DNA of 32,000 nt from Trichodesmium erythraeum IMS101. Lineage in GTDB: Bacteria > Cyanobacteriota > Cyanobacteriia > Cyanobacteriales > Microcoleaceae. The translations under genes were made by a program, and so were the position numbers. Where the stretch lies: positions 2,160,001-2,192,000 of the forward strand of contig NC_008312.1 of NCBI RefSeq assembly GCF_000014265.1, given 5' to 3'. The notes beneath the pieces were generated by a model. The model saw only the letters and a program-made list of their open reading frames with translations. It was not told the origin of the DNA and did no database searches. Below, piece by piece: positions 42 to 19,061 of the stretch. The stretch's first letter is position 1. Each line of letters begins with the position of its first letter.

Positions 42-473
42 CTAATCTGGGCATTCTGTTGGTCTTTCTGGGTGCTGGTCAGGACGTGAATATTTGTATG
101 GTTGTTGTTTAAAATCATAGAGTTTGTGGAGTAACCAACGTTCTTGATGATAGTCAGATTTTGGTCTAGGAGTTTGAATAGTATTTAGCCAATCTTGGGG
201 AAATTCTTGAATGATAAATTCCCATTGGCGTTTCAAGTTATAAGTGCGAATATCATGGAATATTTCTTCAGTAAAAATTTGTTTATCACCTATTGATTCG
301 TAATGAGTAACAAGTTTACCATAGTCAAATTTAAAGACTCGATTTGCAACAATTACATCACCTAAAAAAGTCTTTTTTTTATTACCTGCACAAACTCCGG
401 TCATTGCTAAACAACGAGGTTTTAATTCTGAAATAAGTCGAGTGACTAGATTATTAGTGTAGTTTTCTCCCAT
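42..473 (-). CDS. Truncated PNP_UDP-like (nucleosidase-fold) protein, 143 aa; possibly a gene remnant
   Basis: The ORF lies 26 nt downstream of the Roc-COR gene on the same strand. LISELKPRCLAMTGVCAGNKKKTFLGDVIVANRVFKFDYGKL aligns by eye with AIAYFKPDVILFVGVAGGIKDVQLGDVVAATKVYGYESGKV of the 6252..7331 product (central strands of the PNP/MTA-nucleosidase fold). The N-terminal strands and the EME and ISD catalytic segments are missing. The stop lies 41 nt from the window edge. Confidence 0.5.
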   Translation of the reverse strand: MGENYTNNLVTRLISELKPRCLAMTGVCAGNKKKTFLGDVIVANRVFKFDYGKLVTHYESIGDKQIFTEEIFHDIRTYNLKRQWEFIIQEFPQDWLNTIQTPRPKSDYHQERWLLHKLYDFKQQPYKYSRPDQHPERPTECPD

Positions 474-499: not shown

Positions 500-2746
500 T
501 TAATCGCGTACCATATATCTAAGTTTTGATAATAAATCTATATTTATTACATTATCAATTAAACTCTTTATATTAACTTCATTATAAGGATGATTCTCAC
601 AGGTAGTTTTTAGTCTACCATTACGAATCCATTCTTTTAATTTTTCAAGTTTATAAAAATGTGGATTCTGGCTATTTTTACAAGCAGCACAAGTACAAGG
701 AAATAAGTGATTATATTTGAGTCGATTATTATAGGAACTGTGAATTTTATCTAATAGGTAAGTTACGAGAGTCATTAAAGCCCGTTTTTGTCGTCCAGAA
801 ACCCTAATTTTTATTTCTCTTCTGTCGTAATATTCAATTACCTCTGCTCTGGTTTCATTTTGCTTGATAATAACTCCCCTTTTCCAAACATATTTCTGTT
901 GTTCAATATCTCGGTGCATATCTACAATAAACTGAGTGATAATTCCTCTGGGCATAAATTTGTAGGTGTAACGTAAAATCAAATTGTTATTTTCATCCCA
1001 GTCATATTCTGGTTGATTTTCTGTTAAAAGTTGAGGGGCAATATAGGTCTGAGAATTACCAAGAATTTTATAACATAGTTTAAATCTAATCATTAACTGG
1101 AGTAGTTCATCGCGCATATCCACATATTTTTCTTCATTCCAGATATTGGTTAAATCATCTTTGGTGAATTTGCCGAAGTTATTATAAACTGTCGGATTAT
1201 CTAAGATTTTATAAACTGCCGCTATTCCCCATTCTGGTTTGAGAATAACTGTTTTATTTAACAGTGGGTTATCCTGAAAATGAAGACAAATTCCTAAGTC
1301 ATGTAAATAGCGACTTAACTGTAATTTATACTCCAATTTTGTCAAGCCATTTTGTTTACAAATAGATAAATATTCTTCTAGACTAATATAGTTACGGGAG
1401 TCTAATTCTAAGATTTCCCGGACTTGTTTCCAAGTTTTAGGTAAACTACTGCCAATATGGGGTAATTCACTAATATGATGTTCGATTTCTCTGATAATTT
1501 CTTCTAAACCGCGATTAGTTTCAAGGTTGGTAGCTAAGATTTCTTTAATGTTAGTAAATTGCCCTTGCAATCCCCGTTGATTAATTTCTCGTTGCCGTTC
1601 ATGTTTCTCATTTTTCACAATTAATAAGGGGCTATTATCGCTTAATAATTCTACTACATTGAGCCAATAATAAAAGTCTGTATCTTCTTTGCGAGTATCA
1701 ACGACAAGGATATATAGAGAGCGTTTTGTTAAGAAAAATTGGTGGGTAGTGTGATAAATTTCTTGTCCGCCAAAATCCCAAATATTTATTTGAAAGTCAT
1801 TTTGGTTTTTTGTCTTAAAGTTGTACTGATAAACTTCAATTCCTTTGGTTGTATCTTCATCTTTGAGTTGATAGTTTGGGTTGATAATTTTATTAGCTAA
1901 AGCTGTTTTACCAGCTCCAGCTTCTCCAACAATTAGTAATTTAGCTTCACAGATATAATCTATTCCTTTTTCTGGAGGAAACTCTGCCAAAAACTTTTTA
2001 ATAACAGGATGAATTAAGAAAAACTTCTCATTACCTAATTTGACCTCCTCCCCATCTCCAAACTCTTCTTTTAACTCCTCAATTTCCTCCCCTAACCCCT
2101 CCTTTTCATCAACCAATAACTTTGCCAAAACATGAGAATTAAGCACCAAATTTTGATACTCTTTCCATAAATTAGTCTGCTCCAAAGGTTGAGCCAAAAT
2201 CTCCACTAAATAAGGAATTTTTTCTTGACCAGCTAACCCCAAAACCGGATTATCTTCCGGCAAACTTTCAGATAAAAAGCTCTCCATTTCCCGAATTGTC
2301 CTATCGGGATCTAAATAAGCTTGAGCAATCCATTCTTGAACCATTCTTAACTCTCCAGATGGTTTTCTCTCCCCTTGTTTATCCAAATAAAACCACAAAA
2401 ATTCAGCCAATTCAAAAGGTCGTCGCCAACCAAATTTATCCTCCAATTCCTCCAACAAAACTTCCCTCACACAAGGCTCAACCTCATAAACTCCCTCTTG
2501 TAAAGGACGACATAAAGAAGACAACAAAAAATTACTTTCTCCTATCCAAGGAATATTTTCCTCATCCAAAAAATTAATCCGAATTAAATTAACTAATTCA
2601 GGAGTTAAAATCAAAAACAACCCACAATGACAAGCAAGCTTAAAATTTTCTTCTCCAAAACGACGCTCAAATCTTACCACCTCTTCCACGGCATTCTCCG
2701 GAGATAGCCATAGCTTTCTAACAACCGCCTCAATAGTTTTAACCAT
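500..2746 (-). CDS. Roc-COR (Roco-type) GTPase with an uncharacterised ~260-aa N-terminal helical region
   Basis: 748-aa ORF whose start overlaps the vWA stop by 8 nt. It has a Ras-like G domain: G1 LLIVGEAGAGKTAL and G3 IWDFGGQE. The G4 position reads VKNEKHE rather than NKxD. A COR-like region follows (LPKTWKQVREIL ... YLHDLGICLHFQDNPLLNKTVILKPEWGIAAVYKILD). An acidic linker (EEIEELKEEFGDGEE) precedes the G domain, and there is a C-terminal Cys/His cluster CTCAAC...CENH. Confidence 0.85.
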   Translation of the reverse strand: MVKTIEAVVRKLWLSPENAVEEVVRFERRFGEENFKLACHCGLFLILTPELVNLIRINFLDEENIPWIGESNFLLSSLCRPLQEGVYEVEPCVREVLLEELEDKFGWRRPFELAEFLWFYLDKQGERKPSGELRMVQEWIAQAYLDPDRTIREMESFLSESLPEDNPVLGLAGQEKIPYLVEILAQPLEQTNLWKEYQNLVLNSHVLAKLLVDEKEGLGEEIEELKEEFGDGEEVKLGNEKFFLIHPVIKKFLAEFPPEKGIDYICEAKLLIVGEAGAGKTALANKIINPNYQLKDEDTTKGIEVYQYNFKTKNQNDFQINIWDFGGQEIYHTTHQFFLTKRSLYILVVDTRKEDTDFYYWLNVVELLSDNSPLLIVKNEKHERQREINQRGLQGQFTNIKEILATNLETNRGLEEIIREIEHHISELPHIGSSLPKTWKQVREILELDSRNYISLEEYLSICKQNGLTKLEYKLQLSRYLHDLGICLHFQDNPLLNKTVILKPEWGIAAVYKILDNPTVYNNFGKFTKDDLTNIWNEEKYVDMRDELLQLMIRFKLCYKILGNSQTYIAPQLLTENQPEYDWDENNNLILRYTYKFMPRGIITQFIVDMHRDIEQQKYVWKRGVIIKQNETRAEVIEYYDRREIKIRVSGRQKRALMTLVTYLLDKIHSSYNNRLKYNHLFPCTCAACKNSQNPHFYKLEKLKEWIRNGRLKTTCENHPYNEVNIKSLIDNVINIDLLSKLRYMVRD

Positions 2747-3899
2747 GCAAATTAACTCCCATTGGAAAAGGATATCCTAACAATATTTTAACCAAATCAT
2801 TTAATCCTTGTGGATTTAAAGAATACATAGGAATAAACGTAGCAATATCTTCAGCAGTGGTCATCCTCCACTGAAATTCTGGAACAGGGTTTAACCATCC
2901 ATATAAATAAGTTTTATCAGATAATTGCCGTATAAATTCCTTAGTTTGATGGAATCTTTCACTATCATAAGTGCGCCGTGCCGCCCCCCCATCACTAACA
3001 ATAACCACACTATTATTACCAACTTCCTGAGATAAAATTTCCTCAATAGGCAAAGGCTTAGTTAAATTAGGTTTAGTAAATAGATAACCCCTCGGCACAT
3101 TGTGAAAATAAAAAATATTCTTTTGATTTAACAACCCTACTTTTTCAATACTTTCCTGTAAAGTATCAATCAACAATTTAAAAGGAGACATGGAACCTTC
3201 ACAGTCAATTAACAAAACCAACTTAACTTGATTTTTTCTAGAAGGTTGTAAAACCACACCAGAGAAAAAACCCATTTTATAAAATAGATTAATTGTTCCT
3301 TGAACATCTAAATTTTCCGGCGCACCCTCTCGTTTTAACAACCTTAAATTACGCCAAATACTAGTCATTTCTCGGCGAGTTATTGGTAAACGGGGAATCA
3401 AATTATAACTTTGTCTAAATCTCAGTTTTATTGGGGTTATTTCTGACAGAGATTTTCTCGAAAAATCGCGAATTGGGATTGAATTAGTTGGTTGATTAGG
3501 TTGAGGTTTATTTTCCTTTTGAACTTTAGATGAAACTTGAGAAATAGGATTACTATTAATATCTAAATTTTCAGTCTTTTGAGGAGGAGAAGTAGAATCC
3601 TCATCAATTTTAGGCAATGGAGATTTATCAGCTTCTAGTAATTGCTTTTCTAACTCAGGTCTAACTAACTCCTCAAACAATTGATTAAAAATATATTGGT
3701 CTTCTAAAGACTTAACCCATAACAAACATAAAAGTCGTTTTAAACGTTCAATATCCTGCCACGCCCCTCGAGATTGAATCATTTTAATCGCCAGTAAATA
3801 TTCAGAAATTCCCACGGGAATATCCTTTTGCCTCAACCTATTAAATAAAGGCAATAAAATAGTTTCAAATTCAACGATTAATAATTCAAAGTCAACCAT
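2739..3899 (-). CDS. vWA-domain protein, CoxE-like N-terminal region
   Basis: 386-aa ORF. The C-terminal half shows vWA hallmarks: KLVLLIDCEGSMSPF (MIDAS-like, but D-x-E-x-S instead of D-x-S-x-S) and NSVVIVSDGGA. The N-terminal helical part (FNRLRQKDIPVGISEYLLAIKMI...) resembles CoxE-type vWA proteins. A P/S/N/Q-rich linker lies between the two. The gene is paired with a MoxR gene upstream, which is the classic arrangement. Confidence 0.8.
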   Translation of the reverse strand: MVDFELLIVEFETILLPLFNRLRQKDIPVGISEYLLAIKMIQSRGAWQDIERLKRLLCLLWVKSLEDQYIFNQLFEELVRPELEKQLLEADKSPLPKIDEDSTSPPQKTENLDINSNPISQVSSKVQKENKPQPNQPTNSIPIRDFSRKSLSEITPIKLRFRQSYNLIPRLPITRREMTSIWRNLRLLKREGAPENLDVQGTINLFYKMGFFSGVVLQPSRKNQVKLVLLIDCEGSMSPFKLLIDTLQESIEKVGLLNQKNIFYFHNVPRGYLFTKPNLTKPLPIEEILSQEVGNNSVVIVSDGGAARRTYDSERFHQTKEFIRQLSDKTYLYGWLNPVPEFQWRMTTAEDIATFIPMYSLNPQGLNDLVKILLGYPFPMGVNLHG

Positions 3900-4062
3900 T
3901 TATTAATTTTCAGCTTATCTACTGGTTTGGTATTGGATTTTGTTGCTTTATTAGTGTTTAGTTTCGCGAATCAACCAAATCTAAGCTCTTTTACCTCAAC
4001 CTATTAAATAAAGGCAATAAAAGAGCTTCAAATTCAACAATTAATAATTCAAAATCAATCAT
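3831..4062. repeat. Direct duplication of the vWA gene 5' end (69-bp copies at 3831-3899 and 3994-4062, offset 163 bp)
   Basis: The two copies differ at 5 of 69 positions. Copy 2 encodes a relic start, MIDFELLIVEFEALLLPLFNRLR-stop. Its ATG (4062-4060) overlaps the MoxR stop (4057-4055) in an ATGATTGA arrangement. Confidence 0.9.
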
Positions 4063-5092
4063 TTTTTAACTTTTCTATAGTATTTTGGTCACTTTGATTT
4101 TTTACTAAAGTATGGAGAAAAGGAAGTTGATATAATTTAGTCTCCCTTAAAACTTCAGCTTTGATTTCCTGATACTCCTGAGTTGTATTATTTGGCAATC
4201 CTCTTTCTAAAAGTCGCAACCAATTAATAAACTCTCCCGTACTAGGTTTTTTCCGCCAAGAAATATCGTCACGAAGTTCTACAAATTTAGTTAAAGCAAC
4301 TTCAAAAAGAGGAGAAACATCCTGTTGAAAATGATTAATAATAATCTTCCTCAAATCCTCCTTATTCGGAAAGCCAATATAATAAAACAGACAGCGACGT
4401 AAAAAAGCCTTAGGTAATTCTTTCTCTTGATTACTCGTAATAATAATCAAAGGCAAAAAATCCTTTCTGTCTTCCCGCTCCTCTCCTCGAAGAGCATCAT
4501 ATTTCAAGTTTTTTACCTCCTTTACTTCAAACTGTAACCTATCTAAAACCAACAGTAAATCATTAGGAAAATCAATATCAGCCTTATCAACTTCATCAAC
4601 CAAAACCACCGAAGGAATATTATTTTTATCAGAAAGCTCAATAGCCTCTCCTAACTTGCCCAACTCTATATATGTTTCCCGGTCAATAACATTAGTTACT
4701 TGAGGTGAATTATTAATATCTTTCTCCTCTAATTTACCCTGAATCAATCTATATTCTTGAAGGTCATATAAACGGCGAATATTATCATAAGTATAGAGTA
4801 ATTCTTCAGCCCGAATCGTAGAACGAATATAACATTCTTTCAAAGGATAACCCAACTCATAAGCAATAGAATAAGCAAGACGAGTTTTACCACAACCAGG
4901 TTCACCTTCCAACAATAAAGGGCGGCGTAAATAGAGAGCATCATTGACTGCCTCAGCCAAATTTTTAGAAGCAATATAAGGTTCTTTTTTTATGGGTATA
5001 TCTAGAAATTCTTTCCCCTTTTCGTCTTTTAATCGTTCATACTTTTGGTCATTACCTTGACCTTCATATTGTCTATTTGCTAAGTCGTTCAT
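4055..5092 (-). CDS. MoxR-type (AAA_5-like) AAA+ ATPase
   Basis: 345-aa ORF with Walker A LLLEGEPGCGKTRLA, Walker B PSVVLVDEVDKADIDFPNDLL, a sensor-1-like IIITSNQ, and arginines in LPKAFLRRC. It sits directly upstream of a vWA gene. Confidence 0.9.
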   Translation of the reverse strand: MNDLANRQYEGQGNDQKYERLKDEKGKEFLDIPIKKEPYIASKNLAEAVNDALYLRRPLLLEGEPGCGKTRLAYSIAYELGYPLKECYIRSTIRAEELLYTYDNIRRLYDLQEYRLIQGKLEEKDINNSPQVTNVIDRETYIELGKLGEAIELSDKNNIPSVVLVDEVDKADIDFPNDLLLVLDRLQFEVKEVKNLKYDALRGEEREDRKDFLPLIIITSNQEKELPKAFLRRCLFYYIGFPNKEDLRKIIINHFQQDVSPLFEVALTKFVELRDDISWRKKPSTGEFINWLRLLERGLPNNTTQEYQEIKAEVLRETKLYQLPFLHTLVKNQSDQNTIEKLKND

Positions 5093-5107
5093 TTTTTCAA
5101 TATTTTT

Positions 5108-6181
5108 TCAATTAATTGCTCGTAGTTCGTCAATAATTCCTTCAAGAGTATTATAAGTAGAAAGCAAATGACCATCAGCATTTCTTAACTTTCTAAGGCA
5201 TGTATTTATCATATCATCTTGTATCTGTAATTTTTGAAGATAACCCCTAAACCAGTCACATAATTCATTAATTTGAAATGATTTAGGTATGCTCAGGTTA
5301 ATACAACCCTGAATAGATTGTTTTATCTTAACATTAGCAAAAATAATAATTAAACAGCGACTTTTATTTTCTAAATAGCAATTACATTTCGTTTTTATTT
5401 CTGATAAAAAAATATCTGTCATCGAATTTAAATTTTTTTTATTGATATTGTAATTCCAAATTATTAATACAACATCTAAAGGATCAGTCTCAGCTAATAA
5501 ATCAGTTATTTGATTTATGTTGTTATTTTTTAAGTCATCATCAATTGATTTTAAATTCCGACTCAATCTAATCTCACGAGACCAATAATCACGTTGAGTT
5601 TTCTCCTGTAATTCGTGGAGAATTCTCTCAATAATATAATTCTTTAAAATTGTGTACTCTTCCCCAAGACTAAAAGCAAAAACTCCTTGATAATCTAATG
5701 CTTTTCTAAATTTGTAGACTAACTCATCTAAATCATATTTAACAATTATATTGTTATCTTTATTATTATCTTTATTATTATCTTTTATTTTGATAGGTGT
5801 TTTAGATGTCGGTATTTCATGGTTTTGTTGCCTTTTTTTAGACATACGTGAACGATGATCAGGAATTTGGTTTATTCGCGATCGCTTGGGCTTAAGTTTT
5901 TCAATATATCCTTTGATAGTCAATCTTTCATCTGGATCTAATTTATTTTGCAAATATATCAAAAAAGATTCTAAATCTTCTGGTTTCTTTAAAATTAAGC
6001 TATAAAAATTAGTGACTAACTCTTTCACAGGTAACTTGTAATCTATTGTCGTTATATCAATTTGTACCTCACTAATATTTATCATTGCTTTTAAACCTTC
6101 GCTAGGTTTTTCTAGCCCATTAAAATAGTCAGTTAAAATTTCCTCTAACTTAATTTTTTCATCAATACTCAACTTGAACAT
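5108..6181 (-). CDS. Adaptor protein: N-terminal effector-associated-type domain, KDNN repeat linker, C-terminal degenerate NTPase-like domain (function unknown)
   Basis: 357-aa ORF that ends 15 nt upstream of the MoxR start. Residues ~9-80 are about 50% identical to the C-terminus of the 6252..7331 product. The linker contains KDNNKDNNKDNN, encoded by 3 x 12 bp at 5752-5787. The C-terminal part shows strand-helix patterns reminiscent of a P-loop NTPase without a P-loop (GVFAFSLGEEYTILKNYII; DVVLIIWNYN; CLIIIFANV). Confidence 0.7.
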   Translation of the reverse strand: MFKLSIDEKIKLEEILTDYFNGLEKPSEGLKAMINISEVQIDITTIDYKLPVKELVTNFYSLILKKPEDLESFLIYLQNKLDPDERLTIKGYIEKLKPKRSRINQIPDHRSRMSKKRQQNHEIPTSKTPIKIKDNNKDNNKDNNIIVKYDLDELVYKFRKALDYQGVFAFSLGEEYTILKNYIIERILHELQEKTQRDYWSREIRLSRNLKSIDDDLKNNNINQITDLLAETDPLDVVLIIWNYNINKKNLNSMTDIFLSEIKTKCNCYLENKSRCLIIIFANVKIKQSIQGCINLSIPKSFQINELCDWFRGYLQKLQIQDDMINTCLRKLRNADGHLLSTYNTLEGIIDELRAIN

Positions 6182-6251
6182 AAATCAGCTTATACCGGTT
6201 TTACTTTAACTATAATTTACTATTGATATAGAGTGGTAAATATCCCCATCA

Positions 6252-7331
6252 TTACCGAATCATTGCAATGATTTTATTAACAAATAATTGTTCATCAGAA
6301 TCTTTAAGTAAATGACTCCGAAAAACTCTCAGAAAAGATAGAGAATTCTCCCTACTTTTAAAAATTTCAGGATAAAAATTAGGAATTAACTCTCTCACAG
6401 GTAAATTGTAATCTATTGCCGCTGTATCAACCTGTATCTGACTAATATTTACTAATGACTTTAAATGTTGACCAGGTTTCTGCCGAGCATTAAAATAGTC
6501 AATTAAAACCTCTTGTAATTTCATACTTTCCTCAAAATTATCAGCCAAAAAATTAGAAGACTTTGGATGACTTTCCCCATTATATTCTTGATTTCTACTT
6601 AACCAAAACTTCCCTAAAACCTCAAAAGCAAAAGCACTAGCATGACGAGCAGCTATTTCTTGAAAACCCCCTTCATCCGCCCTACTTTTCCCATCAATTA
6701 AATCAGAAATACCCCGAATAATTAAAGCCGAAACCTGTTGATTAGCATGAGCAACTTTTAAAATACCATGACCTTCCATTTCCACTGCTAAAGCATCACC
6801 ATAATTGTGCTGAAGAAACTCAAATAAATCTGATTTCTTATTAGTAACCACCTTTTCTCCCGCAGCAATAGGCTCAACAAATACATTAGGTTGAGCTGAA
6901 TCAGAAAATCTAGCTAACCAATCTCTTTTTCTTGCCTCAGCTTTTGCCCGTTGAATCAAATTATAAGTTGAACGGCCAACATCCGGCCTTGGCCTAAAAG
7001 TCTCAGCCACCTTTCCCGACTCATAACCATAAACCTTAGTAGCAGCAACCACATCTCCCAATTGGACATCCTTAATTCCTCCAGCTACCCCAACAAATAG
7101 AATCACATCAGGCTTAAAATAAGCGATCGCTCTCTCAGCCTCCATCGCTGCAGGAGAATTTCCAGCACCAGTCTGGACAATACCCACTTCCCACTCTTGG
7201 CCACCAACAGAAAATTGGCCCCTCTCATAAATTGTCCCATTAGGGTGTATCTCCTCCCTCAAATCACTAAGATGAGCAGATACCGCCATATATTCGATAC
7301 GAATTGCTGTTAAAATAACCGCACAAACCAT
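6252..7331 (-). CDS. PNP_UDP_1-family nucleosidase/phosphorylase fused to a C-terminal effector-associated-type domain
   Basis: 359-aa ORF and first gene of the cassette. Residues 1-~240 form a complete MTA/SAH-nucleosidase-like fold (VQTGAGNSPAA, ILFVGVAGGI, LAVEMEGHG, IIRGISDLIDG). The EME and ISD motifs match the catalytic Glu and Asp motifs of E. coli MTAN. Residues ~270-359 form a helical domain homologous to the N-terminus of the next gene. Confidence 0.85.
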   Translation of the reverse strand: MVCAVILTAIRIEYMAVSAHLSDLREEIHPNGTIYERGQFSVGGQEWEVGIVQTGAGNSPAAMEAERAIAYFKPDVILFVGVAGGIKDVQLGDVVAATKVYGYESGKVAETFRPRPDVGRSTYNLIQRAKAEARKRDWLARFSDSAQPNVFVEPIAAGEKVVTNKKSDLFEFLQHNYGDALAVEMEGHGILKVAHANQQVSALIIRGISDLIDGKSRADEGGFQEIAARHASAFAFEVLGKFWLSRNQEYNGESHPKSSNFLADNFEESMKLQEVLIDYFNARQKPGQHLKSLVNISQIQVDTAAIDYNLPVRELIPNFYPEIFKSRENSLSFLRVFRSHLLKDSDEQLFVNKIIAMIR

Positions 7332-7469
7332 AGCTTTTACCTAGTTGTAATTGAATTGCTTTGTATTATGGTAATTTATTTTTAAAAGTGTAAAAATAGA
7401 ACAATTTTTCAAGAAACTTTAACTGATTTAAAATATTGCTCAATAGACTCTATTACCAACTTATTAAAG

Positions 7470-7682
7470 GTAAACATTCAGCACTTAAAAAATCAGCTCT
7501 CAGGTTTTGAATTTATGCAAGTAACTACTAAGGTTACCTGATGACCAATTACATAACATACCTAATATACGGATGCTGTCTAAACAAACTTTTTAATTCT
7601 CCTTAGAGACTAATTCCTACTTCCAATATAATCAGTGAATAACTCATAGCTAATAGCTGAATTCTAATCCCTGAATGCTTAC
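7470..7682. mobile_element. MITE-like element, copy A (213 bp)
   Basis: Terminal inverted repeats are GTAAACATTCAG ... CTGAATGCTTAC. The internal sequence (e.g. AACTACTAAGGTTACCTGATGACCAATTACATAACA) is about 75% identical to a second copy at 16512-16769. There is no coding capacity. Confidence 0.65.
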
Positions 7683-7778
7683 TATTAGAGTGAATATTAT
7701 ATTCAGGCGATCGCATAAAATAATATTGCCTAATTGATAATTATATTAACCCAGTAATTTTAGCCGTCAAAAAAATCC

Positions 7779-8330
7779 ATGAACGACAAAAAAACCATAC
7801 TTCAAGCTTTTCTACTCGAATATGAAAAATTGAAAGAAGAGCAACTAAAACGTATTGAATTCCGAGACCAAATGATTTATATAACCCTAGGAATATTTGG
7901 TAGCATTCTCTCCTTTGCTCTATCAAACAAAACTAATTTGTATGCCCTCTTAGTTATTCCTTGGGTTTGCCTAATTCTCGGTTGGACTTATATAGTTAAT
8001 GACGAAAAAATTTCAGCTATCGGAAAATATATTCGACTGACTCTCACTGAAAAAGTCAAAACACAAACAGATTATTCAGATATAGAATCTATATTTAGTT
8101 GGGAAATTGCTCATAGAAGTGATAAAAGAAGAAAAAGGCGCAAAATAGAGCAGTTAATTATTGATGAAATTACCTTTGTTTTCTCTGGTTTAGTAGCTTT
8201 ATTTACTTTCTGGTCTCTAGAGACAAATCTTCCCTTAGTAATTCATATATTTTGTACCTTTGAACTTCTTCTATTAGCAGTTCTAGCCATAGAAATTATC
8301 ATTTATGCCGATCTAGCTAAAGGTCGATAA
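7779..8330 (+). CDS. Hypothetical 4-TM membrane protein with an N-terminal amphipathic/coiled segment
   Basis: 183-aa ORF divergent from the cassette. Hydrophobic segments are IYITLGIFGSILSFAL, LYALLVIPWVCLILGWTYIV, ITFVFSGLVALFTFWSL and VIHIFCTFELLLLAVLAIEIIIYA. A basic loop reads HRSDKRRKRRK. I did not recognise a family. Confidence 0.55.
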   Translation: MNDKKTILQAFLLEYEKLKEEQLKRIEFRDQMIYITLGIFGSILSFALSNKTNLYALLVIPWVCLILGWTYIVNDEKISAIGKYIRLTLTEKVKTQTDYSDIESIFSWEIAHRSDKRRKRRKIEQLIIDEITFVFSGLVALFTFWSLETNLPLVIHIFCTFELLLLAVLAIEIIIYADLAKGR

Positions 8331-8517
8331 ATTGCAATTTTTATTCTTAATAATTAAGATAAACTTAGACGATTATGAGAATATTTGACTATTAGTTAAA
8401 ATCAGGATTAGAATCAAAAAAAATCTAATTTCAAGAAAATGTTTAAAAAATACTTTTAAGGATTGATAAAATCTAAAAACTCACCCCTTCCCCACAAAAA
8501 AAACGGGATTTTCACAC

Positions 8518-8559
8518 CCTCTCTTTTCCATGAAGAGTGGTTTGGAGAGAGGTTTTTTT
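8518..8559 (+). terminator. Possible intrinsic terminator
   Basis: A CCTCTCT (8518-8524) / AGAGAGG (8546-8552) stem is followed by T7 (8553-8559), about 190 nt downstream of the 7779..8330 ORF. The loop is long (21 nt), so the call is weak. Confidence 0.35.
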
Positions 8560-9562
8560 ATGAGTTAACAAACAATTTATAAAAGCAGAATTATTTACTG
8601 AATAATACTTTAATATAGCCATCCGTATTTCTTATGTAAAATCACACGCCTTCAATTAAAATAGCTTTAACTCCTGTGACTTCAACATAAGTGACTCCTG
8701 GGTTAAAATAGCAATTTTTACTTTTCAAATACAAAACTTCTGCCTTCTGCTGTCAAGCCAAAAATATCCCTATTCTAGATTAATGAAAACTGCTATAAAA
8801 CTAGGAAAAAATCTGAGCGATCGCTGCTTTTAGCCACATCAGAAAGTCTAGTTAACCAATCAACAGATATATACTATATACAGTAGATTCTAAGTAATCC
8901 TGTAACCCCACCATAAATGTACCCAAACAAGCTGTCCTCAACCTTCTGAGAAACTTACAATTATCTACATAAATATCTGAAGATCCTCACCCTATATCAA
9001 TTCTATTCAGTGCTTCACTCTGGCAAGGTTTTTTGGTAGTTATTGGGGTGCAATTCAGTTTTGAATTCAAGTAGCATGAATAAAGATAATTACAGACTAT
9101 CATAGAGAATAACAGATTATAGCCAACAGCTTACATGCCCTCAAATACCCAATCAAAGAATATTGTATTCAACTAACCAAAATACTCTTCAAAAAAACCT
9201 ACAATAATCTGAAAAATCTATTATTATCTCTTCTGTGGATATTCGATTATATTTCTCAGAGTTATCCTATTCCTATTCGCTAATTTCAATAGCCTACTCA
9301 ATCTGGTAAATTTTTATCTATAGTATAGACCTATACTTATAAGCGCAGAACATAATATAGGAGCATAGTAATTATTACTCAAAGACATTTATATCATTCT
9401 ATCTATAAACTAGGATAAATTCTATAAATTTGCTTTCCTTGAAATTACCAAACACCTATCATTACTGAAAATTTATTAACTCAAATTAAAATTACAATCG
9501 CCCAGTATATGATAATCTAATTTTTTATACGATAAATTTGCTGTTGTACAGAGGGAAAAAAA

Positions 9563-9763
9563 ATGCTAACGTTTCTAACATTACTATTTCAATTTTTACT
9601 ACTTCTATTAGTAGTCTTATCCTTTATCTTAGTAGTTGGGGTACCTGTTGCCTATGCTTCTCCTCAAATCTGGTCTAAAGGTAAACCTTTAATTTTTATT
9701 GGTTCTGGTTTGTGGTTATTACTGGTAATCTCAGTAGGTGTTCTGAACTTTTTAGTCGTTTAG
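9563..9763 (+). CDS. psbZ: Photosystem II reaction centre protein Z
   Basis: 66-aa two-TM protein. [27 protein letters not shown]...LNFLVV matches the cyanobacterial PsbZ (Ycf9) consensus that I recall ([20 protein letters not shown]...LNFLVV). Confidence 0.9.
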
Positions 9764-10543: not shown

Positions 10544-11125
10544 ATGACAGTTTTCGAGGGAACGTTTACTCAAGTTGACTCTTTACGCTTTGCTATTGTA
10601 ATTGCTCGTTTCAACGACTTAATTACTGGCAAGCTGCTTGAAGGTTGTCAAGATTGTTTGAAACGCCACGGTGTCGATCCAGATCCAGATGGTACTCAAG
10701 TTGATTATGTTTGGATACCAGGCAGTTTTGAAATTCCTCTAGTAGCACGTCAATTGGCTATGAGTAATAGCTATGATGCAGTAATTTGTCTAGGAGCTGT
10801 AATTAAAGGCCAAACTCCTCATTTTGATTATGTAGCTGCTGAAGTCTCTAAAGGAATTGCTGCCGCAGCATTTCAAACAGGAACACCTGTAATCTTTGGA
10901 GTTTTGACCACAGATACTATGCAGCAAGCTTTGGAGAGAGCTGGCATTAAAAGTAATAAAGGTTGGGAATATGCGATGAATGCCCTAGAGATGGGAAGTT
11001 TGATGCGTCAAATTAAGGGTAGTATTAATTCTTCACCAAATAATTATAGTATTACTGGTAAAACTCAAGCACTCCCAATAACTTCAAACGATTTTATAGA
11101 GTCTGATATATCTCCAGAAGTATAA
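10544..11125 (+). CDS. ribH: 6,7-dimethyl-8-ribityllumazine synthase
   Basis: 193-aa ORF. It carries [52 protein letters not shown] and [11 protein letters not shown], which are canonical RibH motifs. A C-terminal tail of about 35 aa is S/N-rich. Confidence 0.95.
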
Positions 11126-11223: not shown

Positions 11224-11295
11224 GCGGGTATAGCTCAGTGGTAGAGCGCAACCTTGCCAAGGTTGATGTCGCGCGTTCGAATCGCGTTACCCGCT
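11224..11295 (+). tRNA. tRNA-Gly (anticodon GCC)
   Basis: It folds by hand into a cloverleaf. The acceptor stem is GCGGGTA/TACCCGC, the D arm GCTC-AGTGGTA-GAGC, and the anticodon arm CAACC-TTGCCAA-GGTTG. The T arm is GCGCG-TTCGAAT-CGCGT. CCA is not encoded. Confidence 0.95.
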
Positions 11296-13202: not shown

Positions 13203-14015
13203 CTATTTTGTTGCTAATTTCACGTTAGTAGCTAAACCAAAAGCTTGCAATAATTGAATCATCATCCAAGTTGTATCAATTTCCCACCATTTCAAACCAT
13301 GACGTGCTGAATACTGAAAAGCATGATGGTTATTGTGCCAACCTTCACCATAAGTTAACACAGCTACCCACCAACAATTAGTCGAAGAATCACCAGAATC
13401 ATAAGTACGATAACCAAACTTATGAGTGGCACTATTAACTAACCAAGTACAGTGAAAAACAGCTACTATCCTTACAAAAATACCCCAAACTACAAAAGAC
13501 CAACCTCCTATAAAGAAAAGCAAAATACCAAAAGCAAATTGAATGAGAATAAAATTAGCTTGCAAAAACTTGTAAACAGGGTCGTTTGCTATATCTTTTG
13601 TGTAGCGAGATATTTCAGACTTCATTGGTAATTTATGGAGCATCCAACCCATATGACTCCACCAAAAACCACGATGAGAGTCATGAGGATCTTGTTCATT
13701 ATCTGAATGCTGGTGATGAATACGGTGTAAGCCTACCCAATCACAAACTCCACCTTCACAGGCAAGTGTACCGCAAAAAATAAAAAAATATTCAAGCCAT
13801 TTAGGAGTTTTAAAGCTGCGGTGTGTAAGCATACGATGAAAGCCTAAGGTAATACCTAGACCACCTGTAACCCAGTGTAAGAGTAGGGCTAGGCCAACTG
13901 CAGTCCAACTAAAGTTACTGGGAAATAGGGCGAACAAGGCTCCAATATGCAGGAACGCCATAAAGCCTATTATACTCCAATCAAGAGAAAGTGTTTTTGA
14001 TGTTGAAATTGTCAT
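13203..14015 (-). CDS. desC: Acyl-lipid Delta9 fatty-acid desaturase
   Basis: 270-aa ORF with the three histidine boxes HRMLTHRSF, HRIHHQHSD and HNNHHAF, plus the hydrophobic stretches typical of membrane Delta9 desaturases. Confidence 0.9.
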   Translation of the reverse strand: MTISTSKTLSLDWSIIGFMAFLHIGALFALFPSNFSWTAVGLALLLHWVTGGLGITLGFHRMLTHRSFKTPKWLEYFFIFCGTLACEGGVCDWVGLHRIHHQHSDNEQDPHDSHRGFWWSHMGWMLHKLPMKSEISRYTKDIANDPVYKFLQANFILIQFAFGILLFFIGGWSFVVWGIFVRIVAVFHCTWLVNSATHKFGYRTYDSGDSSTNCWWVAVLTYGEGWHNNHHAFQYSARHGLKWWEIDTTWMMIQLLQAFGLATNVKLATK

Positions 14016-14745
14016 AAAAAATCTTTAAGTTAATAAGTAGATAGCTCCAAAGAAACTAGCTTAATCAAAGCAGGTGTATATTTTTGCATAGGATATAGAA
14101 AATATTTTTTAAGAAAGTAAAAAATATTTTCTCATACTAGAACCTGGATGTTATTAATAAGCTATCAGCTTTTGGAATTAAGCTAGCTTCCTCAATAGAA
14201 ACTGGCTTAATAGCTTTTATAGATATGGCCTCAAATATCCATTTTGTATAAACCGAATGGTAATGGGGGAGTTAAAGTTTCCTTAAAAGACCTTAAAAAA
14301 GTGATCTTAACTGATGGCTGATTGGTTATTGTTGAATGCTTCTTTAAGTGTTTAAGTCTAAAATTACAAGTTTATAAAACAGGAAATTTTTATAAAAAAA
14401 TAGGACTATAAATATAGTAAATAAATATAGTAAAATTTATAAATTTTGGTAATTAATTGACTCGGAAAATTTGATTAATAAGAAAAGTCAACTATAATGT
14501 TGATACTAAGCTAAACAATGCTTTGTTTTTTAAGATTCTTGATTATTTTCCTCAAAATTGTCATAACCTTTTAATGAAACTTTTTTCTTTATAATTACAA
14601 TCAGCCTTAATATCTATCTAAAATTAATTTTTTTTGTATTTATAAAGAAACTTAGATTTTATTAATAGCAATATTAATAAGATAGATTTTATTTTTTTTT
14701 TTATTATATCACAAATAAAACAAAAACAAATTTAAAAAAATAAAT

Positions 14746-15996
14746 ATGAATAGTATTGAATATCTACAAGCTGGAGAACAAGAGCTATATCCCATATTTT
14801 CGGAAATTGATAGCTTGGTTAAGCAAAATCTCAGGGGGGTAATAGATGCTTTTCGTCATCATCGAGTAGGTGTCCATCATTTTTCTGGAGTTACTGGTTA
14901 TGGCCATGACGATATTGGCCGGGAGACTTTGGACAAGGTTTTTGCAGAGATTATGGGGGCTGAGGCAGCAGCAGTAAGAATCCAATTTGTTTCTGGAACT
15001 CATGCGATCGCCTGTGCTTTATTTGGGACTCTAAGGCCAGGGGATGAAATGTTGTCTGTTGTGGGCCCTCCTTATGATACTTTAGAGGAAGTAATTGGTC
15101 TCAGAGAAGAAGGCCAAGGTTCTCTGAAAGAATTTGGTATTAGTTACCGAGAATTACCCCTGACCGAAACTGGGACAATAAATTGGCAAGGGTTAGAATC
15201 TGCTGTTACTGAAAAAACTCGTCTGGCTTTAATTCAACGTTCTTGTGGTTATTCTTGGCGAGCTAGTTTAGCTATTTCAGAGATTGAGAAAATTGTCAAG
15301 ATAGTTAAGCAAAAAAATTCTGAAACGGTTTGTTTTGTAGACAACTGTTATGGAGAGTTTATTGAAGACCGGGAACCGATCGCAGTGGGAGCAGATTTAG
15401 TAGCGGGGTCTTTAATTAAAAATCCTGGTGGCACAATTGTTATGGCGGGGGGCTATGTAGCAGGTAGAGCAGATTTGGTGGAAGCTGCAACTTGTCGGTT
15501 AACTGCTCCTGGTATTGGTAGTAGTGGGGGAGCAACTTTTGAGCAAAATAGATTATTGTTTCAAGGTTTATTTTTGGCACCACAAATGGTGGGGGAAGCG
15601 ATGAAGGGAAATCATTTGACGGCTTATGTTTTTGATAAGTTGGGTTATGCTGTTAATCCTCTTCCTTTTGAAAAACGACGGGATGTTATTCAGGGGATTA
15701 AGTTGGGTTCCCCGGAAAAGTTAATTGCCTTTTGTCGAGCTATTCAGCAATATTCCCCTGTAGGGTCTTATTTAGATCCGGTACCGGGGCCGATGCCTGG
15801 ATATGACAGTCAGTTGGTTATGGCAGGTGGAACTTTTATTGATGGGTCTACTTCTGAATTTTCGGCAGATGGACCTTTGAGGGAACCTTATGTGGTTTTT
15901 TGTCAGGGGGGGACTCATTGGACTCATGTTGCGATCGCTCTGGAGGCGGCTATTAAGGCAGTAGGGAGTAGTAGAGATATTCTGCAACATCCCTAA
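14746..15996 (+). CDS. YnbB-like PLP-dependent enzyme (Met_gamma_lyase / 'aluminium resistance' family)
   Basis: 416-aa ORF. HHFSGVTGYGHDDIGRETLDKVFAEIMGAEAAAVRIQFVSGTHAI and GSLIKNPGG (presumed PLP-lysine) match my recollection of this family. The assignment is from memory of the family consensus. Confidence 0.8.
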   Translation: MNSIEYLQAGEQELYPIFSEIDSLVKQNLRGVIDAFRHHRVGVHHFSGVTGYGHDDIGRETLDKVFAEIMGAEAAAVRIQFVSGTHAIACALFGTLRPGDEMLSVVGPPYDTLEEVIGLREEGQGSLKEFGISYRELPLTETGTINWQGLESAVTEKTRLALIQRSCGYSWRASLAISEIEKIVKIVKQKNSETVCFVDNCYGEFIEDREPIAVGADLVAGSLIKNPGGTIVMAGGYVAGRADLVEAATCRLTAPGIGSSGGATFEQNRLLFQGLFLAPQMVGEAMKGNHLTAYVFDKLGYAVNPLPFEKRRDVIQGIKLGSPEKLIAFCRAIQQYSPVGSYLDPVPGPMPGYDSQLVMAGGTFIDGSTSEFSADGPLREPYVVFCQGGTHWTHVAIALEAAIKAVGSSRDILQHP

Positions 15997-16232
15997 TTTT
16001 TAGGAACAGGAGCCAACAATTTTTGGGGTAATCATAATTCATCATAATGCATCATGAAACGCGCAAATATCTTAATTTATAGTTTAATTCACGAACGCCG
16101 AACATGGATTATTTCCATAATATTTTCTCAAAATTATTCTAGAATTTAAAGATGTTCAATGATTTTTATAATAGGTTTAGTTTACTGATAGGAATTTATT
16201 CAAATGGGTGATGATAATTTCTAAATTCCAAA

Positions 16233-17635
16233 TATAGTAATCCGTGGGTAGGTCGCGACAGATATAATAGTAAGAATAGCATATCCAGTCAAAATAAAAA
16301 AAATAAGCGTTATGGATGAACTAGATGATTTTATCAATCAAATATGCATAGTCTAAAGAAATAAAAAGAGCCTAAGCGGTCAAAATGATTTTGTCGGGAA
16401 AATCCTAACATGAAGTCAAAGAATTATTAAATGTTTCTCACAGTTTTATTAGGGAATGGAAAAACCAAGCACTATTTCATGGCGTAGAAAGTTTAAGGCT
16501 TCAATATAAAGGTAAGCATTCAGATATTAGCAGTCAGCTCTGAGTTTTTTAGTATATGCAAACAACTACTAAGGCTACCTGATGACTAATTACATAACAA
16601 ACTTTCCTTTCCTTTCTTTTCCTTTCCTAACATACGGAATGCTACTTAACAGGAATTATGTGCAAACATAACTTTTTAATTTTCTTTGGATACTAACTAA
16701 TTCGTCTTTCTAATATAATGAGTTAATGACTCATAGGTGATGGCTGATAGCTGACTGCTAAATGCTTAAATATCAAGTAGTAAAATGTCATTTAAATGCT
16801 GTCGAAAAAGAGCAAATAATTGAGTTATTGAAGGCACAATATTATCTGAAATTATCAATTATATTTACAAATTTACAAATTTACAAAAATATTTAAAGAA
16901 GCAATATAATTTAGTATTTGAGTTCTTAAAAAAATATTATAATTTGCTCAAATAAGCTGAAATAAGTTGAAAAAAAACTCAAAAAAAGAATCTAGCTAAA
17001 AATGATGAATTAGTGAAAGTAAAAAAAGTTAGGGAGGAATTATTGACTAAATAGTAACCATAAATAGAAGCTGAAAACCTAACAGTTTTTGTGATTTACT
17101 AATGCCATATTTTATGAGGTTATCTTTCAGGCTATATTTTGGTAAGAAAAGATAAAACAATATAAATTCCGATTAAAAATGATTGGAAAATACAAGCTTA
17201 TTATAGAGCGTTAGACTATAAAAATAAGGGATTTATTATGCAATAATTAAAGAGTAAAAATACTGAAAATATCATTAAATTTGTTAAATATTTACAAGAG
17301 CAAAAATAAGAAAAAAAAATTTGTAATATTTGGGGGAGGTGCAACTGATCATAACTCTTAATAATTTCGAGAGTATTTGATGTTAATTAATCAAAATTTA
17401 CCAGAAGAAGAATAGTTGATAAATTGTACAAAATTTGCTCCAAATTTCTCTGAACAAAACCCGGTTGAAGATATGTATTTTTCAGGCAAAAATTTAATCA
17501 GAAAATTTCATCATCTTTGCAGTTATTTTAAAGTATTTAAGTTATTAGAAGTTTTTGGTGTTCTGGTCAAATATTTGATTTTCCTAAACTTTTTCAGTAT
17601 AGAATTTTGCCACAAGCAATTATAGGATTGCTATA
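16233..17635 (+). mobile_element. Decayed IS630-family insertion sequence (transposase pseudogene) interrupted by a MITE
   Basis: The ends are TATAGTAATCC (16233-) and GGATTGCTATA (-17635), which form an inverted pair. Frame fragments include KRAKAVKMILSGKS*HEVKELLNVSHSFIREWKNQALFHGVESLRLQYKG, then (after the MITE) LNAVEKEQIIELLK. The C-terminal relic is APNFSEQNPVEDMYFSGKNLIRK, compared with the IS630 consensus PPYSPxLNPIExxW. Many stops are present. Confidence 0.65.
16512..16769. mobile_element. MITE-like element, copy B (258 bp), nested in the IS630 relic
   Basis: The termini are GTAAGCATTCAG ... CTAAATGCTTAA. It is homologous to copy A at 7470-7682 and carries an extra CTTTC-rich insert at about 16592-16628. 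It splits the IS630 transposase reading frame after ...LRLQYKG. Confidence 0.65.
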
Positions 17636-17666: not shown

Positions 17667-19061
17667 TTAATGCAAATAATTTGATATTATATACTGCTTC
17701 AGCACAGCTAAAACAGCAAATAAATTATCTTGTTTTGTTACTAAACAACGTCTTTTTAATGATTGTATTCCTTTCCATAAATCTGAGTGTAAAAGTGGAA
17801 AGTCTGGGGAAGTATTATAAATATCTACTGCTGTTTCTTGACTTGCCATCCATAATATTACTTGCTTTTCTAGCTCTGACAAACGCTGAAAATATTTGTC
17901 TAATATCGGTTCTAAATCTCCTAAATATATACTAGGGCAAGATAAAATTTGAGCTATATTTCCATTAAATAAATCTTCGACCGCATCAGCAATAATATTT
18001 AACCACAAAGGATTTCCGCTATAGAGATTAATCAACTCTAAGGATTGCTCTTCATCTGTTAAGTTTATATCTTTTAAAATTGCTACTGCTGACTTTCCTA
18101 AACCATCAATTTTTAAAGTCTGACAATGATTATTAGTTGATATTATTTTTGGTTTTTCTTGACTCAGAAGTAACAAACAACTTTGATGAGATAATGTAGC
18201 TATTTGTTGGAAAAATTTACCATAATTTTCATGTTCTTGCAGATAAGTACCAGCTAGTTTTCCACTAGCAAAAATTTCTTGTAAATTATCAAAAATAAGT
18301 AAACAACGATATTTCCGGAGGTAATCTATTAATTGATTGTTGATGGTTTGAGACTTAGAAATTTTTTCTTTTTTTTGGGATGTAAAATCTGTTTGAGATA
18401 AAAATTTAAGAATGTTTATTTGTAGAGATTCACAGGAGGAGTAGTTGTCAATATTGCGCCAGATTATATAATCAAATTTATTTTTTATTTGTGCAATTAA
18501 TTCTACAGTGAGAGTACTTTTGCCGATGCCAGTTAATCCTAATATGGTGATGATGCGGCTGTGATTTTGTAGTATCAATTGTTTGAGGGTGGTAACTTCG
18601 GAGTGGCGATCGCACAGGGGATATAAATCAGGAGCTTCAGATAAATCATAATAATTTTCTGGGTTAGTGTTGTCTTGGTTTTGGTCAATGAGAGTGGGGG
18701 AAGATTTGTTTTTAGGGGTGGGAGATTGTTTGTTTTCTCCACAGATATTTATATGATTACTATTAATATTTACGCAGTCATCACCTGTATTTGAAATATG
18801 TGAAAAGTGGATTTTTTCTAATATGGAACGAGCATTAGATTTTTTGATATTTTTTCCTAAAATATCCGAAAGAAGTTTCCATAATTTTGTACCTACCTGT
18901 TTGATATGGTCGGGATGACGTTGACAATCATCTGCTATTTGGGGGTATTTTTTACCATTTAAAGTACCTTTTAATACTTCCTTTTGTAGAGAGGTTAAAT
19001 GTTCTCTAGTTTTGGTGAATATTAAATTGTCTGCTAATTCTACTAATGTGTCAATGTCCAT
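17667..19061 (-). CDS. NB-ARC/STAND ATPase with an N-terminal HTH-like domain and no C-terminal sensor repeats
   Basis: 464-aa ORF. The N-terminus (LTSLQKEVLKGTLNGKKYPQIADDCQ...IKQVGTKLWKLLSDILGKNIKKSNARSILEKI) is the HTH-like module common at the start of cyanobacterial STAND/WD40 proteins. Walker A is ITILGLTGIGKSTL, Walker B is RCLLIFDNLQ, and the GxP motif is YSGNPLWLNIIA. A winged-helix-like tail (LSELEKQVILWMA) follows. The stop lies 31 nt from the IS630 relic end. Confidence 0.85.
   Translation of the reverse strand: MDIDTLVELADNLIFTKTREHLTSLQKEVLKGTLNGKKYPQIADDCQRHPDHIKQVGTKLWKLLSDILGKNIKKSNARSILEKIHFSHISNTGDDCVNINSNHINICGENKQSPTPKNKSSPTLIDQNQDNTNPENYYDLSEAPDLYPLCDRHSEVTTLKQLILQNHSRIITILGLTGIGKSTLTVELIAQIKNKFDYIIWRNIDNYSSCESLQINILKFLSQTDFTSQKKEKISKSQTINNQLIDYLRKYRCLLIFDNLQEIFASGKLAGTYLQEHENYGKFFQQIATLSHQSCLLLLSQEKPKIISTNNHCQTLKIDGLGKSAVAILKDINLTDEEQSLELINLYSGNPLWLNIIADAVEDLFNGNIAQILSCPSIYLGDLEPILDKYFQRLSELEKQVILWMASQETAVDIYNTSPDFPLLHSDLWKGIQSLKRRCLVTKQDNLFAVLAVLKQYIISNYLH

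Follow-up and report, generated by a model that had tools for sequence, protein, structure and literature searches.

A stretch of 32,000 nucleotides (nt) from Trichodesmium erythraeum IMS101 (assembly GCF_000014265.1, contig NC_008312.1, positions 2,160,001–2,192,000 of the forward strand), hereafter the window, was found to contain a cluster of five co-directional genes on the minus strand. The first gene encodes a nucleosidase of the PNP family with a small C-terminal domain, named X in our study (protein PNP-X), and the second encodes a hub protein which carries a further copy of X at its N-terminus (X-hub). These are followed by the genes of a MoxR-type AAA+ ATPase, a CoxE-like vWA protein and a protein in which a linker module precedes a ROC-COR GTPase. 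The effector-side copy of the domain is referred to as X1 and the hub-side copy as X2. The hub gene starts 70 nt after the PNP-X gene and the MoxR gene 15 nt after the hub gene; the 748-residue open reading frame (ORF) of the linker-ROC-COR protein overlaps the stop of the vWA gene by 8 nt. Protein families were scanned for in Pfam, NCBIfam and PADLOC, structures were modelled as AlphaFold2 (AF2) monomers, and the models were searched with Foldseek against the PDB. The coordinates of the features are given in Table 1.

A preliminary description of this DNA, made from the letters alone, had claimed that the C-terminus of the nucleosidase and the N-terminus of the next protein are homologous. 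Both reading frames were present as described there, and the homology was borne out. BLASTP aligned X1 with X2 at 41 of 95 identical residues (43%) and 66% positives, with one gap of two residues and E=8e-28 under compositional adjustment. The Smith-Waterman score of the pair was 211, against 27.9 ± 5.0 (maximum 54) over 2000 shuffles; the similarity is not compositional, because this score lies far above the shuffles (z=36.7), and the alignment-against-shuffle check that the description had proposed was thereby passed with significance. The identity of about 50% given there holds for the 65-residue core that was quoted and drops to 43% over the full 95 residues. Similarity at the DNA level, also claimed, was found near the ranges named, with 137 of 180 nt identical (76%, E=1e-33) between 6357–6535 and 5988–6165. 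No third copy of X was found in the window by tblastn with either copy, the only matches being X1 at 6255–6539 and X2 at 5891–6169. X1 and X2 are a real and statistically solid domain pair.

Table 1. Features of the gene cluster, in positions of the window.
Feature	Position	Strand	Content or basis
PNP-X gene (359 residues)	6252..7331	-	PNP/MTAN-like nucleosidase domain and C-terminal X1
PNP-family nucleosidase domain, residues 5-238	6618..7319	-	Pfam, PADLOC and structure matches
X1, residues 265-359	6255..6539	-	BLASTP against X2; predicted five-helix AF2 model
Hub/adaptor gene (357 residues)	5108..6181	-	X2, disordered linker and inactive STAND/AAA+-like domain (predicted)
X2, residues 1-97	5891..6181	-	Homology to X1; same helices in the AF2 model
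Low-complexity hub linker, residues 98-150, KDNN repeats	5732..5890	-	Predicted disordered; pLDDT <50 at 99-150
iSTAND-like domain, residues 151-357	5111..5731	-	Predicted P-loop NTPase fold without Walker A GK[ST], then three-helix lid
MoxR-type AAA+ ATPase (345 residues)	4055..5092	-	Pfam AAA_5 6e-11, AAA 2e-8
vWA protein (386 residues)	2739..3899	-	Helical N-terminal domain; MIDAS-like DCEGSMS
Linker-ROC-COR protein (748 residues)	500..2746	-	Helical N-module of ~260 residues (putatively vWA-L-like) and ROC-COR GTPase
PNP fragment ORF (143 residues)	42..473	-	Pfam PNP_UDP_1 7e-4, confined to profile positions 60-112

The AF2 model of X1 contained helices at residues 7–22, 27–38, 53–64, 68–80 and 87–99 (pLDDT 92, pTM 0.84), and X2, within the model of the hub, contained helices at 6–21, 26–36, 52–63, 67–78 and 83–96 (pLDDT 75–91). 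The two copies are predicted, independently of each other, to form the same five-helix domain. Foldseek found nothing significant for the X1 model in the PDB (best E=1.6), with no Death, CARD, DED or PYD domain in the top 50; the nearest Death-related hint was a de novo designed protein whose name refers to 1CY5 (TM 0.49, E=5). No significant match was found among the viral structures of BFVD, and in neither set did an enzyme match the model significantly. A Death fold for X was considered as a structural claim and rejected, because Foldseek gave nothing significant in the PDB or BFVD and X has five helices against the six of that fold. The term 'death-domain-like' of the preliminary description stands as a functional analogy only. 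Phage-encoded copies of X were also looked for; tblastn gave no match in 50,697 phage genomes, and there is therefore no support for phage-encoded mimics.

The 359-residue protein matched Pfam PNP_UDP_1 (E=9e-27) over residues 5–238, and in PADLOC it matched the CBASS 'PN-superfamily effector' (E=1.4e-18) and PDC-M60C (5e-19). Structures of MTA/SAH nucleosidases were matched at E=3e-13, and the motifs AVEMEG and ISD align with the catalytic Glu and Asp of MTAN. The PN-superfamily profile is one of the Cap17-type class of PNP enzymes, for which cleavage of ATP/dATP, to adenine and (deoxy)ribose-5'-triphosphate, has been demonstrated (bioRxiv 10.1101/2023.01.24.525353). PNPase domains linked to third components were proposed by Kaur et al. 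to release a base as a signal.

No family was found for the hub in Pfam, NCBIfam or PADLOC, and 18 of its homologues were likewise without a family. The AF2 model of the hub, built on 19 homologues, shows the five-helix N-domain (residues 6–96), a disordered segment (99–150), an alpha/beta domain and a three-helix lid; the iSTAND-like domain reached a pLDDT of 70–92, and the length of the linker was variable among the aligned homologues. Foldseek returned 35 matches in the PDB at E<=1e-3 (E=6e-5 to 1e-3), all of them AAA+/STAND NTPases, which included ORC1, Cdc6, RFC, ATAD2, TRIP13, Apaf-1, Dark and plant NLR resistosomes. The matches to Apaf-1 and Dark span more than 390 columns, but at high rmsd. 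No Walker A GK[ST] was present in any of the 19 aligned homologues; the loop after the strand at 166–174 reads GEEYT, GGDEK, SGDYK and the like, and the P-loop position reads 'FAFxxxxxxxIL' in the alignment. Since the structure search returned AAA+/STAND NTPases only and GK[ST] is lost, the hub is, as modelled, an inactive STAND/AAA+-like protein (inactive STAND, iSTAND).

When 1.84 billion representatives were scanned in full with HMMER, the X family came to 13 clusters at 50% identity; the hub family comprised 23 clusters at 90% identity. The named sources of X and hub relatives were Okeania and Trichodesmium only, and all clusters appear to come from Trichodesmium- or Okeania-like cyanobacteria. 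A word-indexed search with a profile of the two copies found 8 short close relatives; scans of genome contigs gave Okeania SIO3B5 and Trichodesmium MAG_R02 only, and a scan of JGI metagenomes gave one locus. The flanking genes of the window were 96–99% identical to those of Trichodesmium sp. MAG_R02. The operon architecture was kept in 11 further loci, and PNP-X, X-hub, MoxR, vWA and a linker-effector gene occurred together in L001, L005, L006, L008–L011 and L014. In all loci examined the hub gene was beside the MoxR and vWA genes. In L007, an Okeania-like metagenome contig, PNP-X was reduced to a 39-residue C-terminal relic of X1 (7811–7930) beside intact X-hub, MoxR and vWA genes, and proteins with EAD8-PNP and EAD8 architecture were encoded upstream.

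The two X copies were found to exchange sequence. In L008, a run of about 31 codons in X2 was identical in DNA to X1 except for one codon. In Okeania L001, about 25 codons of X2 were nearly identical to X1 and carried residues specific to Okeania (PGEH and QID in place of the PGQH and QVD of Trichodesmium). The tracts, copied from X1 into X2, are about 90 nt long, and from the two loci it follows that gene conversion between X1 and X2 occurred independently in two lineages.

The hub was also the most variable part of the cluster. Compared with other Trichodesmium loci (L005, L008–L011 and L014), the amino-acid identity of the window was 91–97% for the PNP domain, 97–100% for X1, 96–99% for MoxR and 91–99% for the linker module, against 72–95% for X2 and 57–81% for the iSTAND-like domain. 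The lowest iSTAND-like identities within Trichodesmium did not exceed the 67% shared with Okeania. Nonsynonymous to synonymous rate ratios (dN/dS, omega) were calculated by the Nei-Gojobori method and are crude estimates. The iSTAND-like domain gave a dS of 0.26–0.31 and an omega of 0.8–1.1, against a dS of 0.005–0.10 and an omega of mostly 0.2–0.5 in the flanking genes; the vWA gene reached about 1.3–1.5 in two comparisons at very low divergence. The omega of X2 was 1.8–2.5, on few substitutions, and that of X1 was 0.24–0.5, with X1 80% identical to its Okeania counterpart. In Trichodesmium MAG_R02 (L003) a run of N in the assembly falls exactly over the iSTAND-like domain. On these crude estimates, the hypervariability of the hub fits diversifying recognition or a component that is targeted by an antagonist. 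A tentative extension, to which we give a low probability, is that X2 and the iSTAND-like domain make up a hypervariable recognition or arms-race module, in which conversion from X1 repeatedly resets X2 so that docking persists, a 'constant plug, variable socket'. If this were true, a single conserved nucleosidase would be shared by many hub alleles within a cyanobacterium that lives in colonies.

Two metagenome contigs carried recombinant forms of the pair. In L015, a standalone chimeric X of 99 residues (P0003; 2828–3127), with the head of X2 and the tail of X1, was found between PNP-X1 and X2-hub, with identical spacers of 71 nt. In L016, PNP, X and hub were fused as one ORF of 610 residues (P0017; 77–1909). 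These structures are either real unequal crossovers or loop artefacts of short-read assembly. Neither the fusion, considered as a Rosetta-stone case, nor the putative decoy was used as evidence, because both junctions lie inside the tract identical in X1 and X2, where an assembler may skip or re-traverse a loop. Should the X-only gene of L015 prove real, it would represent a natural decoy akin to CARD-only proteins.

Bacterial conflict systems are held to recruit interchangeable effectors through small same-domain adaptors, in the manner of the animal Death and CARD domains (PMC7159879). These effector-associated domains (EADs) were defined by Kaur, Burroughs, Iyer and Aravind in 2020/2021. 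According to PMC7159879, one copy is carried terminally by a core component (VMAP, iSTAND, Ubl or GAP1), and another is fused terminally to an enzymatic effector domain or a signalling domain, which the neighbouring gene frequently encodes; the domain is small, without enzymatic features and usually all-alpha, and copies in adjacent genes are mutually closer or lineage-specific. Homotypic docking of EADs is put forward in PMC7159879 and PMC8195603 as a computational proposal, and a limited literature search turned up no experiment in which binding by an EAD was tested directly.

The arrangement of X follows this pattern. X2 occupies residues 1–97 of the iSTAND-like hub, directly upstream of the MoxR and vWA genes, and X1 the C-terminus of the adjacent PNP nucleosidase, with both copies present in 10 further loci. 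The domain is about 95 residues long, non-catalytic and, in the models, all-helical. The mutual closeness of adjacent copies is seen in the conversion tracts of L008 and Okeania L001; the copies of the window are just 43% identical. In one relative (P0035), X is fused behind a bona fide Pfam EAD1 (E=7e-12), in a locus that has decayed. The preliminary description had taken the pair as the signature of an EAD, and its reading is supported by these features at the level of sequence. The decayed locus (L017, 209–1288), from another cyanobacterium, contained a PNP gene truncated after 95 residues, followed by EAD1-X with a shortened X; by eye, the N-terminus of the next gene product resembles Rpn-type recombination-promoting nucleases.

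The description had also proposed a profile search against the EAD families. The Pfam models EAD1–11, VMAP and Death gave no match to X1, X2, either full protein or 19 hub homologues, for the EADs not even at E<=1–10; the same scans do detect EAD8 on neighbouring proteins of these loci. Profile-profile comparison gave a remote similarity to EAD8 (Pfam PF19961). An alignment of 14 X sequences compared with the Okeania EAD8 by hhalign gave a probability of 34%, and with a broadened EAD8 alignment (12 sequences) the probability was 73–77% (P=2–3e-5), over 62 ungapped columns from the N-terminus, from shallow profiles (Neff about 2.5). The aligned region contains the common motif D[YF]NLP..E[LF]I. 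The score was reached by 0 of 200 and 0 of 80 column shuffles, and by 7 of 120 and then 1 of 150 shuffles of 15-column blocks. The link between X and EAD8 stays moderate because the EAD8 profile could be deepened by 7 close relatives only. As far as these profiles go, X is probably homologous to EAD8, remotely, which is unproven. Okeania L001 was found to contain a second adaptor network on true EAD8: two EAD8 copies with a C-terminal domain of about 180 residues (C-domain), the C-domain alone, EAD8-PNP, and linker-PNP-EAD8-C-domain (genes at 4582–5760, 6177–6725, 7034–8560 and 13902–16676). No core component bearing EAD8 was seen in the stretch of L001 examined.

We consider it likely that X is a lineage-specific adaptor domain of the EAD type in a ternary conflict system of the MoxR-vWA-iSTAND kind in this filamentous cyanobacterium, which works by docking of X1 on X2. 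X would be a new, lineage-restricted example of the known EAD principle inside a known kind of system, and the concept is not new. In the mechanism that we infer, X1 at the C-terminus of the nucleosidase would bind X2 at the N-terminus of the hub and would dock the enzyme on the inactive STAND hub, which would act together with the products of the next two genes downstream, the MoxR ATPase and the vWA protein. Upon a trigger, assembly or remodelling of the hub may concentrate, release or switch on the nucleosidase. The enzyme would then cleave a nucleotide, most likely (d)ATP as do effectors of the Cap17/Detocs type, or would carry out a base-releasing signalling reaction, and the infected cell would stop growing or die.

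Several points weigh against this reading. The Pfam models found no EAD in X, as described above, and because of this the family assignment of X rests on one profile-profile comparison, made with shallow profiles. X1 is nearly invariant and X2 varies among strains, a pattern that departs from the simple co-variation to be expected if the two sides of an interface co-evolved tightly. The hub can also persist without its PNP-X partner, because L007 keeps an X-hub gene beside the PNP-X relic.

A different explanation is that X does not bind itself and is the docking site for a shared third partner, such as the MoxR ATPase, the MIDAS face of the vWA protein or a sensed protein of the invader. The constancy of X1 while X2 drifts fits a common external ligand more easily than a strict pairwise co-evolution, the raised dN/dS of the hub and X2 is as expected of a surface in contact with an invader, and in L007 the X-hub was kept without PNP-X. 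Gene conversion between X1 and X2 and the presence of the same domain on adjacent genes, the EAD pattern, are nevertheless more simply explained by self-association, and no candidate partner emerged. We regard a third partner as improbable.

A slightly less probable explanation is that X acts within each protein as a module of self-oligomerisation or autoinhibition, for example by holding PNP in an inactive oligomer, and that the pairing reflects a local duplication only. PNP-family enzymes are known to act as oligomers, and in both proteins X occupies a terminus and is attached through a linker. This leaves the presence of the same domain on two functionally unrelated proteins encoded 70 nt apart, retained across Trichodesmium, Okeania and relatives further removed, poorly explained, and the combination of X with EAD1 is an architecture typical of adaptors. 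That the duplicate has no function and arose neutrally through recombination in a genome rich in repeats, as the recombinant and chimeric forms of metagenome contigs L015 and L016 and the many gene relics at Trichodesmium loci might suggest, is very improbable, given that both copies have open frames and a confidently predicted fold, that X1 is under purifying selection (omega 0.24–0.5) and that every intact locus conserves both positions of X.

The locus is a compact and well-behaved test case for EAD docking, with two domains of 95 residues, a confident predicted fold and one enzyme partner that can probably be assayed by nucleotide cleavage. It also provides a natural allelic series for the hub-side X, and chimeras that conversion has produced in nature, from which exchangeable residues can be predicted. 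The hypervariability of the hub and the pattern of conversion are of further interest beyond the domain pair. Trichodesmium is an ecologically important nitrogen fixer with documented programmed cell death.

In the MoxR protein the Walker A (GEPGCGKT) and Walker B (VLVDEVD) motifs are intact, as read off the sequence. The vWA protein matched Pfam VWA_CoxE at 4e-5, under the gathering score, and its Okeania orthologue at 30.7 bits, over it; the vWA protein also matched an NCBIfam model related to the SAV_2336 N-terminal domain (5e-10). The length of the vWA protein was 386, 412 or 438 residues, depending on how many copies it has of a repeat some 26 residues long (…ETENLELKSNPISQVSSEVKQKN…), located after the helical N-terminal domain and before the vWA domain (region 3400–3600 of the window; L003 10101–11417; L008, L010 and L011).

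The 748-residue protein matched Pfam Roc (5e-26), COR-A (4e-46) and COR-B (8e-41), and its residues 1–320 were 71% identical to the N-terminus of an Okeania protein that bears PNP and EAD8 instead. Across the other loci the N-module of the gene after vWA was 71–99% identical and the C-terminal part was swapped, being ROC-COR in the window, LRR repeats in other Trichodesmium (with EAD8 in L008), and PNP, EAD8 and an extra domain in Okeania. The genes that share this N-module lie at 500–2746 (minus strand) in the window, 13902–16676 in L001, 7004–8815 in L008 and 11448–12779 in L005. Judged by its position and behaviour, the N-module would be vWA-L-like. The ORF at 42–473, near the edge of the window, aligned at 75–79% identity with internal segments of EAD8-PNP proteins from Okeania and is probably the relic of a PNP(-EAD8) effector that was displaced when ROC-COR was acquired.

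An ORF of 183 residues (7779–8330, plus strand), divergent from the system, has several hydrophobic stretches, is probably transmembrane and matched no family; it was also present beside the system in L001, L003, L005–L009 and L015, and absent from L010 and L011. Further content of the window was located at 17667–19061, 24008–24919 and 28783–31536 on the minus strand and at 9563–9763, 10544–11125 and 11224–11295 on the plus strand. It included an NB-ARC STAND NTPase with an N-terminus of 150 residues outside known families, a DUF4347/FG-GAP/RTX protein and one tRNA. An AAA_35 gene was broken into two ORFs and is a probable pseudogene; psbZ (Ycf9) and ribH (lumazine synthase) were both syntenic with Okeania. 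The ORF-free stretches of the window were large.

Among known adaptor domains, X is like EAD8 (PF19961) in being small, apparently all-helical and terminal on a core component and an adjacent enzyme, with homogenised copies. It is different in that the likeness covers the first 62 or so columns only and that no Pfam EAD model detects X; EAD8 domains proper are found on other proteins of the same loci. The Death-fold adaptors (Death, CARD, DED and PYD; also the bacterial CARD-like domains of gasdermin systems, PMC10312443) are alike in that a small helical module on hub and effector is proposed to join both, and the hub of our study, with a predicted helical N-domain and an NB-ARC-like NTPase domain, resembles the architecture of Apaf-1 and Dark. 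The Death fold is a six-helix Greek-key bundle, whereas X is predicted to have five helices.

The PNP domain of the window is comparable to Cap17 and to DtcC of Detocs, as it matches the profile of the CBASS PN-effectors and keeps the catalytic motifs of a nucleosidase. Those effectors are activated through a cyclic oligonucleotide or a phosphorelay, whereas activation here would run through the adaptor and the MoxR-vWA core. A direct architectural parallel is the sponge DDAN (bioRxiv 10.1101/2023.01.24.525353), which couples a PNP domain with a homotypic adaptor, a Death domain.

A further comparison is with the MoxR-vWA ternary systems that have iSTAND or iSTAND2 as a third component (PMC7159879; PMC8195603). 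In these systems a separate gene encodes a vWA-L linker with variable effectors, an N-terminal EAD on the third component recurs on an adjacent enzyme, and PNPase domains are linked to the third component. The locus of our study is alike in its gene order, with an EAD-bearing third component, MoxR, a CoxE-like vWA protein and a separate linker-effector gene, and also in the predicted STAND/AAA+ fold without a P-loop, the multicellular cyanobacterial host and the strain-variable effectors; the likeness of the hub to iSTAND or iSTAND2 rests on fold and gene position, with no profile match to the hub. It differs in its linker-borne effector, which here is a ROC-COR GTPase, and in its enzyme partner, a PNP nucleosidase, whereas iSTAND2 systems have mainly trypsin or cyclase partners (PMC8195603). 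In Trichodesmium a Cap17-like nucleosidase appears, from sequence, to be placed under a core of the MoxR-vWA-iSTAND type.

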